A stretch of DNA of 63,926 nt, counting the filler, from Intoshia linei (taxonomy: Eukaryota > Animalia > Orthonectida): the NCBI GenBank assembly GCA_001642005.1. It is 8 parts of 8 records of this genome, joined end to end, with 100 filler letters (N's around TTAATTAATTAA, not from the genome) between each part and the next. Parts side by side here need not be neighbours in the genome. Positions count along the whole stretch, not along the records: positions 35,229 to 45,175 come from LWCA01001323.1; 7 more parts are not named here. One strand, 5' to 3'. A program made the position numbers and the translations under genes. Every line of letters starts with the position of its first letter. The first letter of the stretch is position 1. Below are positions 8,824 to 45,275 of this stretch, one piece after another. A model generated the notes under the pieces. The model saw only the letters and a list, made by a program, of their open reading frames with translations, had not been told where the DNA came from and searched no databases.

Positions 8824-8923
8824 NNNNNNNNNNNNNNNNNNNNNNNNNNNNNNNNNNNNNNNNNNNNTTAATTAATTAANNNNNNNNNNNNNNNNNNNNN
8901 NNNNNNNNNNNNNNNNNNNNNNN
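8824..8923. other. Assembly spacer N44-TTAATTAATTAA-N44 (also 17554-17653, 31364-31463, 35129-35228, 45176-45275, 51541-51640, 60837-60936)
   Basis: Seven identical 100-nt N runs with a central six-frame-stop linker. Confidence 0.98.
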
Positions 8924-27118: not shown

Positions 27119-30100
27119 TGTAATGTTTAGATGATATAAATATCTTAGATATAGGTTTATTCACAATAAAATATCTTTTAGACGATAATAGGATATAGTG
27201 TTGATATAGTAACATTAAGTTTAACATAACATCATTACACCTTCGCCCCAAGATATTACAAGGTGTAATCTTGTAATCTTAAAGGTTTCTTGAGTACGTT
27301 TTGGTCGCTGTTTGAAAAGAGGGAGGTGTTTTTCATTTATTGGGAGATTCGGAATATAATTTGAATTGTGGTGAGTGAGATTTTTGATCCTAAGGTTATG
27401 GTTTGCTTTATGCTTTGTAATGTTTGTCTATCAAAATTTGAATTAATATGCATTTCATATCCTAAAACAATAGAAGCAGGAGTTTGACCAGTTTTAGATG
27501 AAATAGTAGATCTCATAGTCATTAAAACATTGAAGTAGATTGTCCCAGTCATTATCTGAATCAAGACATCTAAAACACTCACGAATTGTACGAATTCGTC
27601 TTTCAACTACGCCATTTTGCCAATGTTGATATGGATGATAGTGGTGTTTTTTTATCCCAAACATTTCGCATGATTCAATTACTATTTTACTTTCCAACTG
27701 TTTTCCACAATCAAAGTGCATTTCAGATGGTGGGCCGTAGCGGCTAATAATATTTTTTAAAATGGCTTTTACAACAGAATATATACCGTAATTTCACTAA
27801 CAGCCTCGCATTCAACCCACCCTGAGTAATGATCATACATTACAATTACGTATTTATTTAATTGACTTGTTTCTTTCAATGGTCCCATTATATCATTATT
27901 GTTATCATTATGTTGCCATAATTGATTGAAATAAATAGATGTGACAATTTTGAAAGGATTAAATTTGCTATGATTCCTATTTTTTGATATATTGCATTGA
28001 TGGCATTTAGCAACATATTCTTTTACATCTCGGTACATGTATCTCCAAAAGTAATTTTTTTTTATATTGGCGTAAGTAGCATTAATACCAGGATGGACAA
28101 AAGCTTTCGAATCATGATAATATTTTATAACTATTTTTATAGCAGAATCAGAAACTAAAATCAACTTTTCATTATTTTTAACATAATATAGTGTTTCATT
28201 AACATTGGAAGTGAGGAATACATTTGTCTAATTTTCCCCCGTTGAATGTCATTTAGGCCGACAAACTTTATCGCTCAAGTAGAGTTATAATAACGAGATA
28301 AAACATCCGCGGTAAAGTTGAATTTTCCAGGTTTATAACATATTTCGTAATCTAATTTATCCAAATACAATACCCATCGAACTAACTCACTGAGAATATT
28401 TTTGGATGTTCTCATATAAACTAATGGATTGTGATCAGTATATATCTTAGTATGAAGACCACTGATATATCTCTTAAATTTATGACATGCTTTAACAATA
28501 GCCAAAAATTCTTTTTTTGTAGTACTGTCGTTTTTCTCAGTGTCAGTTAATTTATTGCTATAATACTCGATAACTCTACCATTTTGTAGCAAGACAGCTC
28601 CAATTCCAACATTAGCGGCATCTGTTTCGATAATAAAAGCTAAATTTTTCTCTGGAATAGTGAGTAAAAGTGCAGATTTTAATGATTTCTTTAGTGCAGT
28701 AAACGATTTTTCCTGTTCTTCATTCCAATGGAATTTAACATTGTTTTTCAATAACTTGGTCATCGGTTCTAAAATTTCTGTGAAGTGATTTATGAACCTC
28801 CAATCAAACACAAAAGAACACATACCTAAAAAACTGCGTAACTTTTTTTGGTTGTAGGTTTGATAATTAAATTAATAGTATCAGTTTTTGAGGGATCAAT
28901 TTTGATTCCGTTAGAGTTAACCATATGACCTAATATTTTTATTTCAGTTTTACCTATCATACATTTACTTGGTTTGACAGTTAAATTTGCTTTTCGTAAT
29001 GCGAACAATACATTGTTTAAATCTATCTTATGTTCTTTAACAGAATTTAAAGCTATAATGATGTCATCTAAGTAAACAATTACATTATTTATGCCTTTTA
29101 AAACTTTGTCCATAACACGTTGACATGTCACCGGTGCATTAGACAATCCTTAAGGCATAACGTTATATTGGTAAAATTTGTCTTCAAATGATGTAGAAAA
29201 TGCAGTTTTCCAACGATCTGATTTTTTTAAAGGAATTTGCCAAAATCAAGAATATCTGTTTATTTCCAAGAAAATCAATGCATTCCTTTAAATCAGGTGC
29301 AGGATATCTATCCTTAATAATTGTCCTGTTCAATTCTCTAAAATCTATAACCATTCTATAAGAACCATTTTTTGTTTTTACTAAAAAATATCATGAATTA
29401 AAACTACTAACACTGGGTTCGATTACATTCATTTTTAACGCATTATCTATAATTTCACAATGATTATCACGTTGGTTGATTGATATTGGAAATGGCTTTG
29501 CACTTTATAATATAGTACTAGGGTCTAATGATATGGAATTTTCATGTTTTAGCAAGACCCATATTATCACAAATAACATCTGGGTACATAGAAATAACAG
29601 AATTAACATAATTATTAGAATCAAAATTTTTATTTTTAATAGATCGATTAATGTTTATCAGTTTCAATCCAATGGCATCTGGGCATCCTATGATATTTTG
29701 AGTATTTGTAACATAACATTTCATTGAATCTAAGCCGTTTATAAGATATACTACCGTCTCATAAAATTTTAATTTTGTTCCATCTGCAGAAAGAAGGATG
29801 TTATTACTAGGTATTATAGGTACATTTTTAAATTTTTTTAACGAATTCTTATTTATAAAATTTACATGAGATTCAGAATCAATGATAAATAATAAAATTA
29901 CATTGAACTCATCATTTATAAATTCAAGAGGTTGTTCAATTTCACCAGATGTTTGTTTGTAAACTGCCCTTATCTGTTTGTTAGGCATCAATTTTCGATT
30001 CTCTAATCTGCAATATTTGGCTAAATGTCCTGTTTTATTGCAATTATGACATTGTAAATTTGTGTTATCATTGTAATTATTGAATATAAAATTAATTTTG

Positions 30101-30704
30101 GATGCAATTATTTAATATTTCTTTAGATCAAGTGAATCATTTGTACTTAATTCAGTTTCAATAGCCGCATTATTAATTCCAAATAGCAATTGGTCTTGAA
30201 TGCGTTCATCAATATCAATAAACTTACATTTGTTCGCATGTATATATAATCTGGACATAAATGTAGACGCTGATTCATAATTATGCCTAATGCATTGTTG
30301 AAATTTCTTTCTATTTGAGGAAATATTTTTTGACTTCCATGAAGTAGATTCTTTTTTATAACTACTAAAGGTTTTTACTTCTGAATTCTTTAGGCGATTC
30401 CGCGCCACTTTGCCAATACTTAATTTGAGAAGAGCTATTTTTTCACTTCTTCAATTTGGTCTTGGGTCAGCAAGTAAAGGTAAACTGTTCAATCCTATCG
30501 CATGAGTCAATATTGAAATTTCCCGAATCATTAATGCATGTGGGTAAATTCATTGAAAACTTTTCCATGGTTTAAAAATATTTTGTAATGTTTAGACAAT
30601 ATAAATATCTTAGATATAGGTTTATTCACAATAAAATATCTTTAAGACGATAATAGGATATATTGTTGCTATAGTAACATTAAGTTTAACATAACATCAT
30701 TACA
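27119..30704 (-). mobile_element. Full-length decayed Ty3/gypsy LTR retrotransposon (Mag-like)
   Basis: 121-bp LTRs 27119-27239 and 30584-30704 (TG...CA, 5 mismatches), 5-bp TSD AGTAT, polypurine tract GGGGCGAAGG next to the 3' LTR; frameshifted gag (IQDQLLFGIN, CCHC-like knuckle), protease (IIDSES), RT (YLDD), RNase H (TDAANVGIGAVLLQ) and integrase (HPG...CHQC, NGVVER). Confidence 0.95.
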
Positions 30705-35228: not shown

Positions 35229-35849
35229 CTCGATTAATTAAAAAAATTAATTACTCTAGAAAAAAAATAAAAAAACGGGCTTTAGTCGTCAATACTGAGA
35301 GGATCCATGATGCAAGAAGGTCATATTGTGACAAATTGGTACAATATGGAGCCAGAAAAATCCTATTTTTGGAAGAAGGTGGTTTTAATTTACATACCTC
35401 CATAAACTATGGATATTTACTTGTGAATACTGATCCAATTCTGTACCAACCTGCCTCGAAGGGTAAAAACATATCGATATCCAATAGCGGACTAGAGCAC
35501 TACCAGTTATGCGAGGGATCCTTTAATAGAGAAAAATTTCTTAAATTTTTGAATAATTGTAAAACCAATAATGTATTTGATAACAGACCAATCGTTGTTG
35601 AAGAGAGAAAACGTTGAACAAATATTTTTACCTCCATATAGCCCTGATTTGAATCCCATTGAGAACTTGTTCAGTGTGATAAAAGCACGACTGAACAATG
35701 TTCGTCTTAGGGCTCATAACAGAATACTACTGGTAGAGAACATACTACGTGTTCTCGAAGAAATTAAATGTGAAAGAAATATTTTTGTCAACATCTTTTT
35801 ATCTATTTGGCAGAAGGTTAATTTGGTGTTTCGAAGACAGGAGAATTAA
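35229..35849 (+). mobile_element. IS630/Tc1-type DDE transposase fragment
   Basis: ILFLEEGGFNL (degenerate DE-x-GFN), frameshift, then FLPPYSPDLNPIENLFSVIK. Confidence 0.85.
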
Positions 35850-37514
35850 AATTTATTACATTGTAGAAATAAATGTGTGTAATACAATCTTTTTATGTTT
35901 TGGAACTATCGTCATTCACTTTAATTTCTTAATATTTTCATTAAAATTTATATTTATGAAAAATAAATTTATATTCATGACAAACTCTGTATTTAAATTA
36001 AATATTATAAATATATGCTTTATTGCGTGAAAACATCAAATTAAATTAAAATTATACATCAAAATGAATAATCTTCATCTATAAAATCAACATGATATAA
36101 ACGACGAAATATATCTAGAAGATATAGGAAATATGGATTTATAGCATCTTGAGCATGACGATGATTTGATAGATCAAGTTAAAGAGTTAAAAGGTCTCAC
36201 CCCAAAATTCCGACGTAGAAAAAATGTTCAGAACCATCTTCAAAAATTCTCCTGAAAAGAAAATAAATACCAATATTATAATGGTACAGAATAATAATCA
36301 ACGTGAATTAGAGTAGAACAAATATGACTATGCCAAATTATTATTAAGGCGTATATTGATAAATGTGAAGATCAGATTAAAGAAGTTGAACATCTTCTCA
36401 CAACTGGATAATTATGATATTACCTATGAATTACTAACAGCACAGCCTAGATTTCCTTGGGTAACTCTTGATCCTAAGGTCTCTAACCAAGTACGCCTCA
36501 ATAGTGTCTTGGGAGGATAATATCTCCTTTACCAACATATGGTTCAGAAAATAAACCATTATCTTCGACATTCTAAAGCAACAGATAAGAATATAGCAGA
36601 TGACAAATTGATGACCTGGCTGATTACCAACGATTATCTCAAAATTATGGATGCATTGGATTCAGTACTATTATGAAGTAGAAGACTAGTATGAAGAAAC
36701 ATACACAAGCATATGCAATTATTATGTCCCTCAACTGGTATTTAGGAAATTCAACTAGTGTGTTGTTCGACCACCACGATTATCATCGCAACACAACCAA
36801 GCGGCATTAGCTCAATTAGACAAAGCACGTTGTGCTGACGTTGCAAAATATTACGTCACGGTAAAGAATGTACGCACATATACATTAAATGGTCCAACTG
36901 CCACACCATTACAGTATCGCCACCATATTCAACGGAAGTAGTTGACAAAGAATACCAAGCCTTACAATTTCTTAATGGAACGAAATATTTAAAATCAATA
37001 TGAAATCTAGTTTTATCTGATCTTTGTTTTGACCAGAAATAATTTTTTTTTATATTATTCGTTTCTAGTAAGAACTTGACCTAAAGATTTTGATTAAGTC
37101 TCTGAAATTTATCAAACAATGTATGTTAGGGTCAATGGGAAGATGAAGATTCACTGTATTCATTGGGTAACAACTATATCTTCATTATATCCCACAGCCT
37201 TTATAACATAACTATCATTAGTTACAGTTATAAAAATTATATCTACGACAAAATTTTTTATTTATAGGGGGAGTATATCGGAGTTAGTCGTAACTACACT
37301 CCTTCCTGTTATAAATCAAATTTCATCAAAAGATATTTTTCGATATTATTACATTCAATTTGTTCTACTTCATTTCATAATATATAGTTCTAGTTACCCT
37401 AATTACTTTGTTTCTTATTAAACTTATGAAAGTTACTTATGTTATGTTAAGTTACTTATGTTATGTTAAGTTACTTATTACTTATGAAATCTTATTTTTC
37501 TAATTATTTGTTAA

Positions 37515-38160
37515 TGTGGGGGAAGACCGACAGTATCAAAAAAGATACTAGCTCAAGGAGATAACCAAATTATATGCTTAACTTACAAAAGTCCAAGTAG
37601 ATTAGATAATGATTCATATGAACAAAAGACTAAATCAATAAAATTGAATGTCAAGACCATTATGCAATCGATAAAGAATGGAGCTTGTAAGTTAGATTTG
37701 CTAATAAAAGCAGATGAAACATAATGTTCCACTAACTTTCTAATATATGGAAAATATCATTTGTTCAGGGGTAGAATATTATGTCCTGAGTCAAAAACGA
37801 GTTTCAAGAGTCGGCTGTTTTTAAAATGACATGAAAATTAATATTTCAAATACAATTTATTCAATTGGTGCCGCCGCCTTACTATTGCTCAACATTCTTT
37901 ATTTTACCAAAGATCAATAGATCTTTTTTTATTATACGTAAATTCTTCACTTAGGCAAATATTGTTTTATAATCCTTCATTGATGGGGCCTAGCCTTATA
38001 TATTTAAAACATTGGAGTACATATCCAAGCACAGCCAAGAATAACAAATTTTAAATGAAGATTCTATTTGTAAATCCAGGAATAGGAGGGATGGCCTTAA
38101 CTAGATTCTTAATTCGGCAATTTCCGGATGGAATAACTGAATCACTCATTTTACGGTTCA
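37515..38160 (+). pseudogene. Endogenous viral element: rhabdovirus-like (Mononegavirales) L polymerase fragment
   Basis: KILAQGDNQIICLTY (GDNQ at 37557-37568), IMQSIKNGACKLDLLIKADET*CSTNFLIYGKYHLFRGRILCPESK, then after frameshifts VSRVGC, ISNTIYSIGAAALTIAQH and ILFVNPGIGGMALTRFLIRQFPDGITESL, in the same order as rhabdovirus L block III. Confidence 0.9.
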
Positions 38161-39214
38161 GAATGAAAGTTTCAAATTACGGAATTGGTGCCGTTCTCAG
38201 ACAAGGTTTACACACCATTCAATTTATCAGCAAATCTCTGAACGAAACTCGAATTAAATACTGCACCACTAACAACGAGTGGTTTGTGCAATCTTAAAAC
38301 TCAGAACATACTTACAAGGAAAAAAATTTACGGTAATCACAGACCACAAACCGTTAACAACAATTATGTCCTCGAATTCACTAACACATCAACAATTTAG
38401 ATACACTCAACTTCTCCAAGATTTTGACTTTGAAATAACATACAGACCTGGCAAACTTAATGTCACTGCCGACTATTTATCACGTAAACCTATCATCAAT
38501 GCAATTTCATTAACAAATAATAATCCATTTAAAATTAAGAAAAATCAATTTATGAATAAAACATTCTCTGAGTTAATTCGAAATATAAACTTTCAGGAAA
38601 ATTTAAACATTATGAACCCATTTCAATCTTTAAAAAACCAACTATGTATTTTAAAAGACAACCTTATCGGTAAAAAAATCAATAATAAAAACATAATACT
38701 TGTACACAAACTGTCAATATCCGAAATCATAAAATATTTTCATAATAATATCCAAAGCAACCATCCAGGCATTCAGAAAACCACCGAAAATATCAGGCAA
38801 CAGTACTATTGGTCTGGCATGTACAAAGATATAGCAACATGGATAATGAAATGTGAACGATGTAATTGTGGAAAATCTGGAAGAAAACTACATAACTTTC
38901 CGTTGAAGCAAATTAAAACGGAGAAATTCAATCAACTGTGGTAACGAGACTTCCTAGGCCCATTACAACAAAAGGATATGGGCAACAGATACATTTTGGT
39001 CATGATCGATCATTATAGTAACTGGGTGGAAGCAGTTCGAATGGCAAACATTACAGCTCAAAATTCAGTCGAAGCTGTTGTAAATAATATAATCTGTAGA
39101 TTTGGAATACCGAATCAAATACACACAGACAAAGCAACACAGTTCGAATTTCAATTATTTCAAGAAATTTGTCTCAAATGCGGAATATTAAAAACAAATA
39201 ACAATTATAATTAA
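38161..39214 (+). mobile_element. Ty3/gypsy pol fragment (RNase H + integrase), truncated at both ends
   Basis: SNYGIGAVLRQ, TDHKPL, YRPGKLNVTADYLSR, HPGIQKT...CERC, DFLGPL, IDHYSNWVEA, RFGIPNQIHTDKATQFE. Confidence 0.92.
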
Positions 39215-39261
39215 AAATAAAAAGGTTTATAATTTTTTAAAAGAGTATAAATTAAGTTATA

Positions 39262-39594
39262 ATGAAAACCGAAAATAAAGAAAAAAACAAGGAACATAAA
39301 GGAATCAGTTCATTATTGGCAGGAATAGGGGTATCTCGAGACTTTCAAAAAGGAGCAGATGCACGATTAAAAATATGGTATGATCAAGGAATTACCCCAG
39401 GGTTCAAGGAGGAAAATGGAAAAAGAGTTTACGACGAAGCGGGAAGCATTAAGTTAATAATTCCTCCTTTAGACTCATTAGCGTTGCCATATCATGAAAA
39501 GCTTTATCAAAGTAAAATCGAAATGGACTTAAAATACACTAAAAACTCCTCAGAGACAATCCCTCAATATCTCAAAATCTCAGAGACAAAATAG
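39262..39594 (+). CDS. Intronless orphan ORF (110 aa), origin unknown
   Basis: Open frame with ATG, more GC-rich than flanks, directly after the broken integrase. Confidence 0.35.
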   Translation: MKTENKEKNKEHKGISSLLAGIGVSRDFQKGADARLKIWYDQGITPGFKEENGKRVYDEAGSIKLIIPPLDSLALPYHEKLYQSKIEMDLKYTKNSSETIPQYLKISETK

Positions 39595-39639
39595 ATCCCT
39601 TAATTGTGGCTAGCTATATCTATTTACTCTCAAAAACGA

Positions 39640-39801
39640 AATTTGGCGACCTCGTTTGCTTCATAAAATGAATGATGACGATTATGATAGACGCATAGAA
39701 TTTTGTGAATAGTACAGCAACAACTCTATGAGAACATTAAAATTAGGAATAAAATAATTTGGACCAACGAAGTAAAGTTTAAGTTGAATGGCCACGTTAA
39801 C
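39640..39801 (+). mobile_element. mariner (rosa/DD41D-like) transposase fragment
   Basis: MNDDDYDRRIEFCE*...IIWTNEVKFKLNGHVN resembles the WSDEAxFxLNGxVN motif. Confidence 0.7.
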
Positions 39802-39909
39802 TTTGAAAACTTTGAAGATAAAATGGAATTCTTTTCATGCTTTTGTTTTGGATCATTAATGTACAATATTAAATAAAAGCTGTATTATTTTAAATTTTGT
39901 GTTCGTTAT

Positions 39910-40020
39910 TGTAATGATGTTGTTAAACTTACTGTTACTATAACAACAATATCCTATTATCGTCTTAAAGATATTTTATTGTGAATAAACCTATATCTAA
40001 GATATTTATATCATCTAAAC
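39910..40020 (+). mobile_element. Solo LTR of the 27119-30704 gypsy family, 3' tip replaced by a hAT end
   Basis: Near-identical to the reverse complement of the 121-bp LTR, ends at ...ATCTAAAC then CAGGGGTCGC. Confidence 0.9.
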
Positions 40021-40445
40021 CAGGGGTCGCAAGAAAACTTATTAACACTGTTATTTTTTTAAACTTGAAGTAAAAAATTTAAATGTATCTACAAATAAAT
40101 TTACATTTACATTAAAATTTTTATAAATTATCACTCATTTGAATATCTCGTTTATCATTTATAAAATTTAAATAATTACTTTATTACTAAAACGGATCTA
40201 TAAAAACGTTAATATATCAATGAAAACATTGGCTAACAAAACAAAAAACCGAAAAAGAAGATACAGTAAATCATTTTTACAATATGGATTTACAACATCA
40301 ATTTAAAATAATGAAGATCAACCTCTTTGTGTAGTATGCAATGAAATTTTAGTAAACGAAAGTATGAAGCCCTCAAAACTAAAAAGACATTTGAATTCAA
40401 AGCATGCTATGTACGCTGATAAACCTATTGAATTTTTTGAAATAA
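40021..40445 (+). mobile_element. hAT (Buster/ZBED5-like) transposon 5' end with BED finger
   Basis: CAGGGGTCGC terminus; KRRYSKSFLQYGFT...PLCVVCNEILVNESMKPSKLKRHLNSKH...KPIEFF. Confidence 0.88.
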
Positions 40446-40872
40446 AATTTTTTTATAAAATGAACAATTCAGTGAATACAACTGTAATATTAATAAACTA
40501 CAGTTCGATTTAGATCTAGTTTATAGCTACGAGAAAGTATATTCAAAATATAATTTTCTGTATACTTAATTAATATACAATTTCATATTAAGCGTTATCT
40601 TACTACAACAACTTTGTTAATATCAGTTTTATATTTATTAAAATCCTTTGCAATATTGGTAAAATTCGCCTGAAATATGTTTATAAAGTGAAGATTCGGT
40701 TCATTATTGATACATAATTGGTATTTTTAAGTATTTATTAAATTGGTACTGAATACATATCATCACATTGAAAATGATAAAATAGGTTTTTGTAATTTTA
40801 TTTTTTCTGGAATTTTTGCTATTTATGACAATTTTTCTCTAAGTACCCATGTCATTTATTTCTTTTTAATTC

Positions 40873-41050
40873 AAGGGATAGCCAACCTCACTATTTAATT
40901 AAAAATGGGCTAAACGTGAGGATATTCCTGGAGAGTTAAATTGCATTTTACAACCGTTAGTACCGAAAGAAATGATACTGTCACCACCTCTGCATCTAAA
41001 ATTGGGGTTCGCCAAACAGTTTCTAACCATGCTGTATAAGCAGAGTGATA
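40873..41050 (+). mobile_element. Chapaev/CMC-type transposase fragment
   Basis: WAKREDIPGELNCILQPLVPKEMILSPPLHLKLGFAKQFL matches the PPLHIKLGLxKQF signature. Confidence 0.75.
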
Positions 41051-41310
41051 ATAACATAAAATATAGAAATGTTAACCCGTTAGTGCTCGCGCTTTTTTAT
41101 AACGTAAACGCTCGCAGACTAATGCTCCATTTTTAATCGACTAATTCCATAAAAATTTTTCTATACTATTTTCACAAGGATATTTAAAATGATGAGCGCA
41201 ACTCGAATCGACATCTTTGTAACACCCCATTCTAGATTATTTTATATATCATGATAATACACCATTTCCGCACTAACGGCCCTTAATTATTTGATGGGTG
41301 TGACACCCTA

Positions 41311-42076
41311 ATGTACATAACTACTTCAAGTATAGCAGATCTGATATGATATTGTATTTTCACTTTTCAGCTTCTGCGATGATGGCTGCTCGGTTCACCA
41401 TTCACGCAAGTTTGGATAATTCTGACACAGGTGTCACATACAAAATATCCAGAACAATCAATATTCAGGGTAACATGCTTGAAATATTTGACTTGCCGTA
41501 CATGCAGGAAACCCCATATTCTCAGACTGAACCAATTTAGTCAGTTAGGACTGATCTTTTTTCCAATATAATGTCTCCTGAGGCAACAGAAACTAGACCT
41601 ATAGTTTTAGCAGTGTGGATAGCATTCCACGGGTTGGAAGTTGCTGTTCGTGCGGTGTTTGATGGAATCCTATTACCAAACAATATATGAACCCGTTGTA
41701 TTTAGACAAATGGATAGAATAGACTCTTCATCTGTCATGATGGGAAAAAACTGAACCAGGCGCGAATTTAAACGGAATATCATGTTCTTCTCAATCCATT
41801 TACCATATCATGAAAAGGGTGTCAGGTGTTTATGTAATACTTTTAGACACAACATACTAGATTGGAAAGACACGTCCCTGTTAAGTCCAGTGTGGCACGT
41901 TGTTTGCCATGTTGAAGTATAATCATGGAGGTTTCAAAGTTTTGGTAAATCCTGATTTTGCTTATTTTGGAGCTATAACTACTGCTGACGATACTCCTAT
42001 AACTGCTATAACAGTTCCAAAAACTTATTTAACTGGGATAGGTAGCGTTCTCATTACAAATCCTTCACCGTTGTAG
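41311..42076 (+). pseudogene. Endogenous viral element: picorna-like capsid (jelly-roll) fragment
   Basis: NYFKYSRSDMILYFHFSASAMMAARFTI ... SRTINIQGNMLEIFDLPYMQETPY ... IVLAVWIA, and a second domain start LFAMLKYNHGGFKVLV; these fit the FxYWRGS..F.F.....ARL and F.VPY....PW motifs of Picornavirales capsids; stops and frameshifts present. Confidence 0.72.
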
Positions 42077-42625
42077 TGAGAAATGAAAATCAAAACGAGA
42101 GTGAATTGATGGGAGCAATAAATACAGGGTTTATATTGTTATGTATAAAGTTTTTAAATCTAATAGATTTAGTTCAATCACATCGGAGGACTGTAGTGCA
42201 TTTTACAGGTAAATGCTTAGTTACGTAGATCGAAGCTTGAACAGCGAGTGATTGCATAATAATAAAATATTTTGACATGTCAATAGAGATTGAATAAGAT
42301 TAAATTTTAAAACGGTGTGTTTAAAATTGAAAGCGGTATTAATAAATAATTTACATATTTACTCAAAGGGCCACTGGTTGCCAGCCCTGCTATAGTGTGT
42401 GACTAATATGAACATTAAAAAATGTTATCACAGAATTGTCAATGTAAAAGTTTAAAATTTTTAAAATAAAATATAAAGTATATATTTAAATCTCGATTAG
42501 TAAGATAGTGATATATTACAGTGCTGGCAATGTATCGAAATATTTTTATCGATTTCCAGCACTAATCACAAACCAATTATTAACTAATCGGTTGAAAATT
42601 ACGCAAAAAATTAAAAATTATTAAC

Positions 42626-44586
42626 CTTTTATTGGTAATTTCTTTAATGCAGACAACAACGTCCTTAATAGATTTAATTGAAACGGTAATTTTTCTGCAA
42701 CCAGGTGATTTTAAAATTTTTTGGATTAATGACATTGTTTCCGCCAATATATTCTGCGGACACATATCTATTTTTGTAACAACAATAATTAAAGGTAAAT
42801 CGAGGGCTAATATTAAACTTAAATGTTCTTTAGTCATTCCTATTATACCAGCGTTAGCACCAATCTACATAAACAACTATAAAAAATAAAAGTACAAAAA
42901 ATAATTAATAATAAATAATTATAACTATTCAGATAAAATTTAAAAGTATACCACCAAGACACTATGGTGCGGTTTATTTGACGTCATACCAAAAACTGTC
43001 GTTTTAAAATACTTTTCATGTCCGGCCAAATCAATAAAAGTTATTATCTAAAATAATAATTAAATAAAAAGTCAATAGTTTCACAGATGCAACCAGAAAA
43101 TGAAAAATAGACCAAAAAAATTACTAACCGATGCAGTGTCATATAGCCCTACCCAGATCTATAATGCTCTTGAATTGATGTAATATATTTTAAATTTAAC
43201 ACACAAAATAGTTGATATTGAAGATATAATTTTTTAATGCTTAATTTCAAAAAATAAGGTCTCAATTTTAGAAAAATTTCTTCAAACCCCTCGATACCCT
43301 CATTTTTATACAGAATATTTGTATTAAGGAAAATTATCATGTTAATATATTGTTTAATTTTCTTTTTATAATTTTAAGGACTCGATTAAATAAAACGATG
43401 CAATAAAATAATATACCTTTGACGAATTAATTCGAACATTTTTCCAATCCACCTTTCCTTTAATTGGTTTTACATAGTCACAATCCTCGTTGAACCCCAA
43501 AATGTAATTAGAAACACTACTAGTTCTCCCACTTGTTTTTTCGTGTAAATGCTGATGCAAACGTCCTCGGGTTAAACCCCTTCCGTCGTCTAATTGGTCC
43601 AACGTCAACACACCTAGAAATGATGTTTTTCCAGCGTCCACGTTTCCAAGAATGGCTATTCTAATATTAAAAAATAATACAAACAATAAATATCGCACTA
43701 ATGATAAAACTTTTTTGAAAATAATTTTTTAATAATTACAATTGTTTATCATCTTTTGAACGATTACTCCTATGTAACATCCGATTCGATTTTGTAACAT
43801 ATTGATTAATACATTGTTTTTAAACATTTTTGGTAAATTTACCGACTTTTACAAAATTTTTCACAAAATTTTTGTCAAAAAGTGAAAATATTCAGATCAT
43901 TCAATTTTTTATTTATGTATATATATATATTTTTTATCGTAATTATGTAATTGCTTTCTTATTAGTTTCATAAATTAGATTTATAATTTTATAAAGATTC
44001 GTTTTCAGTGTTCCATACCCTTCAAAGCTTTGCAGTGAACAGTATATATTTTAATATTGTAAAGCAAAACACAAAAAACAAATTTTAACCATTCTAATCA
44101 ACGGTTACATATATACAAAAGCAAAAAATAACTTACCTAACCTCGATATATATGCTATTGATCATATTTTTTCGTATTAAAAAATGTTGAATTTCATTTC
44201 CATCTTCCAATTTTTCAGCAAGTATTAATGTGGATTTACACTTTAAAATTGTACAAATTTTTTCCAAAGTTTCTAATGATAATTCCATTTGTGATGCTGT
44301 TATACCACGTTCTTTTGATTTTCCTAAAAATTTAAAATTAACAAAATAAAAGAATGTAATCAAGAATATAAAATTAAAAAACCTTCCAATCCAATAGTCA
44401 AAATACATTCTCCACTTCTAATGTATATTTTTTCTTCAATATCATTACACAACAAATCCATTACAGGCTGAGAAGGTTCTACATATACTTCCTAATAAAA
44501 TACATTTAAATAAAATGTAGATTTACCTTTCTGTCAATATTGTAGTCAATTTTTTCTTCATTTTTTATCAATTCTTTTTCGTTCAT
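42626..44586 (-). CDS. GTPBP1: GTP-binding protein 1 (translational GTPase), 5' exons only
   Basis: [77 protein letters not shown]; ends at a GT donor; domain II/III exons not seen. Confidence 0.92.
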
Positions 44587-45275
44587 TTCCTCGATTATGA
44601 TGAATATCAGCTGTCAGTATAAACTGTATATTTTATGAGTCAATGCAAATATTTTTTCAAAATGTAATATGTTCGCATGGTTTTATAATTTATTTAGACT
44701 GATAATTTTTTTAAATTTGAAATTATAAATTATTCACTTTGTTAATATATGTTTCTGGGTTTATTTTTACGTCAATTGGAATATATCGTTTAATCTCAAT
44801 ATACTTTCTATATATATATTTCTTAGTTTGATTAATTGTTCCATTTCTCATTTTAAGTTTATTTAGATTAGGTTGGTTAATTCTCGTGTCAACTAGGTTA
44901 TTCATTTTTAGGTAAAAAATTTTAATGAAAAACAGATACAGTAGTTTCTCGTTTATAAGTACACTAGGGCAGTGGTTTTCAACCTTTTTGTGTTCGCGAC
45001 CCCTTATAAACATCATATCAGTTCACATTTCAAATTTTCGAAAAAATGTGACTCCCTAATGTACATCCATCTTACTATAAGACTTATAATTAGAGTCGAC
45101 ATTTTATAGCACTAAAAATTAGATGATAATGCTAATTTTATTGACTTTATACAATTGTGAGCCTGTAATTTTGCANNNNNNNNNNNNNNNNNNNNNNNNN
45201 NNNNNNNNNNNNNNNNNNNTTAATTAATTAANNNNNNNNNNNNNNNNNNNNNNNNNNNNNNNNNNNNNNNNNNNN

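Follow-up and report, generated by a model that had tools for sequence, protein, structure and literature searches.

The Intoshia linei (Orthonectida) assembly contains, at 41313-42070 (+), a collinear and decayed fragment of about 760 bases with about 250 codons of capsid, which is very probably a non-functional remnant of a viral capsid gene in animal genomic DNA, likely reverse-transcribed by a retrotransposon; the capture route is suggested by the neighbouring sequences. Within this explanation, the source would, with high confidence, be an unclassified picorna-like RNA virus. As in other endogenous viral elements, RNA-virus homology is combined with host sequence on the same contig and with stops and frameshifts, and these breaks rule out a working or live RNA virus.

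Results

Features of the contig

The window, i.e. the whole analysed stretch of 63,926 nucleotides, contains N-flanked 12-base spacers (8824-8923 and six similar sites) that join unrelated contigs, so that distances across the spacers are meaningless. The contig of the fragment carries the following features:

35229-45175, unstranded: the contig as physical unit, 9,947 bases, with two gene models, one labelled Intoshia linei
35553-35846, +: DDE_3 (Tc1/mariner-type) transposase fragment (E 1.6e-10)
37533-38150, +: fragment of a rhabdovirus-like L polymerase, interrupted by stops (E 9.4e-21 and 1.1e-9 to Pfam Mononeg_RNA_pol)
38160-39211, +: Ty3/gypsy-type pol fragment with RNase H, integrase zinc finger and integrase core (Pfam)
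40307-40510, +: BED-type zinc-finger fragment, likely a DNA transposon (E 0.0008 and 0.011, neither reaching the curated cut-off)
41313-41684, +: predicted VP3-like jelly-roll capsid domain, C-terminal half only, with six strands in the prediction (stop at 41538; 54% identity to P0017 residues 2132-2250)
41659-41745, +: inter-domain junction in a shifted frame, matching the linker of relatives (frameshift-aware alignment)
41741-42070, +: putative N-terminal portion of the VP1-like domain, the last one of the capsid (z 8-17 against four of ten relatives; prob 92.5, E 4.8e-7)
42583-44491, -: exons of a host GTPBP1-like gene (E 7e-28)

Reading frames and composition

The four peptides quoted in a preliminary description of this DNA are all present in the sequence. 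YFKYSRS... from 41322, the DLPY motif near 41490 and VLAVWIA near 41605 share one + frame (41304-41687), which is interrupted by a single TAG at 41538, with VLAVWIA lying downstream of the TAG in the same frame. The fourth peptide, FAMLKYNHGGFKV from 41903, is in a different frame from the first three; although it had been taken to begin the next capsid protein, it lies about 75 residues into that domain. Besides the one sure stop, the fragment is broken by two to four frameshifts, located near 41660-41690 and 41740 and probably also near 41835-41860 and 41900; if the latter two are not assumed, two extra stops fall into the main frame of the second piece. Both capsid domains are incomplete in the fragment.

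The description of the region as a GC-richer island holds, since 41311-42076 contains 38.0% GC as compared with 26.1 +/- 3.3% for the window, and only three of 1125 windows of equal length reached this value, every one overlapping the feature. The rise starts about 400 bases to the left of the fragment, in non-viral sequence, where a short frame at 40903-41050 (+) with an LHLKLG motif, reminiscent of a DNA-transposon transposase, matches no Pfam family and explains the left part of the island.

Viral relatives

We then searched 1.84 billion proteins by phmmer with the first frame, in which the stop was replaced by X, at E<=0.001. As a result, 14 matches were obtained (best E 1.9e-24), comprising eight polyproteins, two capsid-only partial sequences, the two gene models of the contig and two other I. 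linei models, with no cellular homologue among them. All eight polyproteins, which are 2234-2856 residues long, carry RNA_helicase and RdRP_1, and seven of them also Peptidase_C3 (3C-like protease), and the match to our query lies within the C-terminal fifth; the layout of the relatives is helicase-protease-polymerase followed by the capsid domains in a single frame. The named matches are Cryptolin calicivirus 1, Sphaeripse virus, Beihai barnacle virus 4 and Beihai sesarmid crab virus 2. In Beihai barnacle virus 4 (P0009), two C2H2 zinc fingers are located between the capsid domains (residues 1757-1812; Pfam zf-met, E 1e-12).

A follow-up search added Dendrolac virus (P0018) and the closest relative P0017 (54% identity), which likewise has the helicase - 3C-like protease - RdRp block. 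Frameshift-aware alignment to P0017 was collinear, 41322-42070 corresponding to residues 2132-2393 of 2466, and scored 366, versus 30-40 for five shuffles. Together with the phmmer matches and the stop and frameshifts, this collinearity bears out the earlier reading of the region as a decayed picorna-like polyprotein with capsid sequence. At the junction, 9 of 26 residues are identical to P0003 (2232-2257), the similarity to P0017 and P0006 being weak, and the linker of the relatives matched here likely holds a Q/x protease site, as judged from their sequences. The helicase, protease and polymerase parts of the virus were not found in the window, and a profile search of its 642 six-frame pieces detected no further parts of the capsid virus elsewhere.

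The preliminary description had also proposed that the lack of a capsid profile match would count against a capsid. Indeed, Pfam reported no capsid family for any piece, in 129 open pieces of 35800-43600 or in the frames with stops read as X; as a criterion for refutation, this proved misleading. PDB sequence searches with both pieces and with P0001 afforded chance matches only, and that with P0012, a capsid-only relative, no match. When longer relatives of P0001 were sought through a word index, none of 76 candidates was retained, which is a failure of sensitivity given the phmmer matches. The identity of the fragment rests on unannotated relatives together with the fold search.

Predicted capsid fold

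The structural model of the first piece, built on a 16-row alignment of the same relatives and hence leaning on them, showed six strands with a mean pLDDT of 74. Among the matches listed by Foldseek, 50 of 50 were picornavirus, dicistrovirus or iflavirus capsid chains, and 45 of 50 were chain 3 or C, which by usual naming is presumably VP3; the best E value, 0.0097, falls short of the tool's own mark for a clear match. A second, independent aligner placed Picornavirales capsids in rows 1-27, its best Z of 7.2 likewise being short of the clear-match mark. The model can be superimposed on VP3 barrels of picornavirus, dicistrovirus and iflavirus, in their C-terminal half (5mqc_C, 3jb4_C, 4qpg_C, 1b35_C) over 104-111 residues (rmsd 3.5-4.0, Z 6.6-7.2). 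In contrast to these chains, with which it shares 7-20% identity and no sequence-level match, our piece comprises only half a domain. The first piece is thereby predicted to be one half of a VP3-like jelly roll, structure prediction for such a fold having been among the checks suggested earlier.

The second piece was assigned through relatives. In the model of P0012, two barrels are predicted with confidence and match picornaviral capsids in Foldseek (E 1.7e-11), while the last (third) domain was modelled at low confidence (pLDDT about 30); on this protein, the second of the two barrels is the counterpart of the first piece, and the last domain that of the second piece. This last domain is alignable across 11 relatives. 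In Dendrolac virus, Pfam recognises it as CRPV_capsid (E 3.6e-13), a family that is also matched in P0014, though under the cut-off (E 0.0099). Through these relatives, the second piece would be a VP1-like jelly-roll domain. The data therefore support a fragment that runs from a VP3-like into a VP1-like domain, the second assignment being indirect. Of the two jelly-roll domains originally proposed, the first is supported by the model, whereas the second is suggested by homology to the relatives and was not confirmed by a model.

Other I. linei loci and phylogeny

Two further gene models labelled I. linei, P0004 and P0010, belong to the same virus clade, which is thus carried by three contigs. 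P0004, a model of 620 aa on a contig of 2,537 bases, includes the polymerase end as well as two capsid domains; it is 46% identical to P0017 and 49% identical (55/113) to the window fragment. P0010 (1,836-base contig) covers part of the region covered by P0004 and continues with non-viral sequence after residue 163. The gaps of both models relative to free viruses may be false introns laid over breaks.

In a capsid tree of 14 rows, in which the window fragment fills only 19% of the columns, the fragment formed a clade with P0003, P0006, P0017, Cryptolin calicivirus 1, P0004 and P0010 (99/99). P0004 and P0010 grouped with the free viruses P0003 and P0017 (96/94), the window fragment lying outside that group. 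This arrangement favours, short of proof, repeated capture of the clade in I. linei; a single origin of the three loci was not rejected (AU p 0.135), and a tree from the 115-residue piece alone had no resolution. The RdRp tree comprised the ten relatives only, and no tree contained family references.

Genomic setting

The L polymerase fragment, located 3.2 kb from the capsid fragment, is of unrelated viral origin and matched the PDB with a best E of 9e-28 (4e-20 for VSV L and no better than 0.003 for other L proteins). It corresponds to the unrelated viral fossil that had been noticed about 3 kb away in the same orientation. Its end at 38150 and the start of the gypsy RNase H at 38160 are in the same frame, and 37533-39211 is clearly a virus-retrotransposon chimera. 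Such an in-frame junction is the form expected from template switching in LTR reverse transcription.

Several other stretches were observed. On the + strand, 36200-37000 is a second GC-raised stretch (about 35%) of long broken frames without Pfam or PDB match, which may be another foreign fragment, and the gypsy fragment is followed by an open frame of 112 codons (39256-39591) with no Pfam match and no usable match. On another contig, a decayed gypsy-like element (27494-30450, -) shows gag-protease-RT-RNase H-integrase pieces by eye.

The last visible exon of the GTPBP1-like gene extends up to residue ~394 of 703, and the GT donor at its end, near 42625, is separated from the viral fragment by about 550 bases. 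The remaining C-terminal exons (about 300 codons) were not found in the contig or the window. Given this donor and the missing exons, the foreign patch is probably intronic in GTPBP1; otherwise, the gene is a truncated copy.

Origin of the fragment

On the preferred explanation, a virus of the clade would have infected germ-line cells of the Intoshia lineage, and the reverse transcriptase of a retroelement, most likely an LTR element, would have copied part of the viral RNA into cDNA by template switching. The cDNA would then have been inserted into a patch rich in transposons, which is probably a long GTPBP1 intron, and have decayed neutrally, and the same virus clade would have entered the genome more than once. 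LTR template switching is proposed because of the in-frame L/gypsy fusion 3 kb away. The ends of the capsid fragment itself show no retroelement junction, and there is no poly(A) at the right end. A candidate target-site duplication, an 8-base flanking repeat, was rejected, as it was equalled in 1332 of 2000 random flank pairs and 560 of 2000 shuffles. The capture route of the fragment, whose own ends bear none of these marks at a significant level, is therefore borrowed from the neighbour. Retroelement-aided capture is a proposed route for such elements in the available text of PMC10235124, and the mechanism itself is ordinary.

We also considered that the fragment is retained as an antiviral small-RNA template, the antisense patch being transcribed with the GTPBP1 pre-mRNA and cut to piRNA-like guides. 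All four tool-supported foreign units (DDE_3, L-gypsy, BED finger and capsid) are on the + strand, opposite to GTPBP1, the minus strand of 35399-42600 has no family at cut-off, and two unrelated viral fossils stand within 3.2 kb of each other. However, four of four units on one strand is expected by chance in 1 in 8 cases, and selection against sense insertions in introns yields an equal strand bias. We consider this role unlikely, although it is compatible with capture and decay and could possibly coexist with them. A broader scenario, in which orthonectids are the true hosts, the virus entered their genome repeatedly and the GTPBP1-linked patch is an antisense small-RNA memory of both plus- and minus-strand viruses, appears improbable to us; if true, such a memory locus would be housed in an animal genome that ranks among the most reduced.

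Orthonectids are internal parasites, for which host DNA is a known risk, and the GTPBP1 gene stops short on the contig; the element could accordingly be real but derived from the parasite's host animal, or the contig could be chimeric. This origin is very unlikely, since the contig has the AT-rich, short-intron make-up of the window, small repeats on both sides of the fragment (41152-41208 and 42317-42374) are common to other contigs of the window, and three separate contigs carry this virus clade.

Automatic annotation treats the region as a spliced host gene, with models of 52 and 44 aa that are both present in public collections, one of them, labelled Intoshia linei by its source, being identical to part of the capsid fragment; the 44-aa model has a 49-base GT-AG intron, close to the I. 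linei median of 57 bp given in the available part of PMC6543705. This reading is hardly credible, as the models cover scraps only, each being a cluster of one, while the viral homology is collinear, extends to both sides of them and runs through the stop, and the 49-base intron leaves out sequence alignable to the viral linker. The homologues of the two models are viral capsids only, and the preliminary description, which had named a better match to a spliced host gene as grounds for rejection, thus stands on this point.

Discussion

Through the fragment, a particular animal lineage is linked to an unclassified clade that is known mostly from assemblies and mixed marine samples. The fossil virus record of Orthonectida would consist of three loci of the clade and the rhabdovirus-like L fragment and, if our reading is true, documents past infection in an animal group with barely studied viruses. 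Furthermore, the fragment exemplifies a class of fossils that Pfam-based screens miss.

The nearest named virus is Cryptolin calicivirus 1. Caliciviridae have a single major capsid protein, in which the shell is formed by one jelly roll. The relatives, in contrast, have at least two tandem barrels, and this multi-barrel capsid argues against Caliciviridae. Dicistroviridae are bicistronic as a rule, with monocistronic exceptions (PMC10269833, available text), their two ORFs being split by an intergenic IRES, whereas in the relatives one protein comprises both polymerase and capsid, and this single frame argues against typical Dicistroviridae. The relatives do share the non-structural-first layout that the same source, as far as available, gives for Caliciviridae, Dicistroviridae, Marnaviridae and Solinviviridae. 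Two of the named relatives are placed with Wenzhou picorna-like virus 38 and Rudphi virus 1 in the accessible part of a preprint (10.1101/2025.06.19.660416). Picorna-like viruses of flatworms have been described (PMC9241645), the main text containing neither Sphaeripse nor Dendrolac virus, while its supplements may bear on their placement. Our fragment resembles these picorna-like relatives in domain order and in 38-54% identity over the VP3-like piece, but it differs from them as a broken stretch of about 250 capsid codons in DNA with no non-structural part.

Viral sequence in the I. linei assembly was seen before, an RdRP gene of a viral family having been noted in the proteome (PMC6396948, available text); this differs from our loci in being a polymerase, for which that text gives no family, and capsid fragments or the locus go unmentioned there. 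Orthonectida are among the phyla sampled in PMC11097642, the available part of which does not name Intoshia. In the literature on Intoshia and viruses, subscription papers and supplements aside, we found no description of these loci. Picorna-type fossils are already known from arthropods; for orthonectids we found none described. Among the arthropod systems, dicistrovirus-derived endogenous elements occur in horseshoe crabs (PMC12282059), and Picorna-Calici elements are listed for arthropods with none in basal hexapods (PMC6955108), both as far as these sources are available. The same portions of the two papers report that picorna-type elements are rarer in arthropods than those of rhabdo- and chuvirus origin, in agreement with the earlier remark that picorna-like fossils are rarer than mononegavirus ones. 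Like the horseshoe crab and arthropod elements, our fragment is a piece of a picorna-type genome in animal DNA; unlike them, it belongs to another clade, encodes capsid instead of non-structural sequence, and resides in a spiralian parasite and not in an arthropod.
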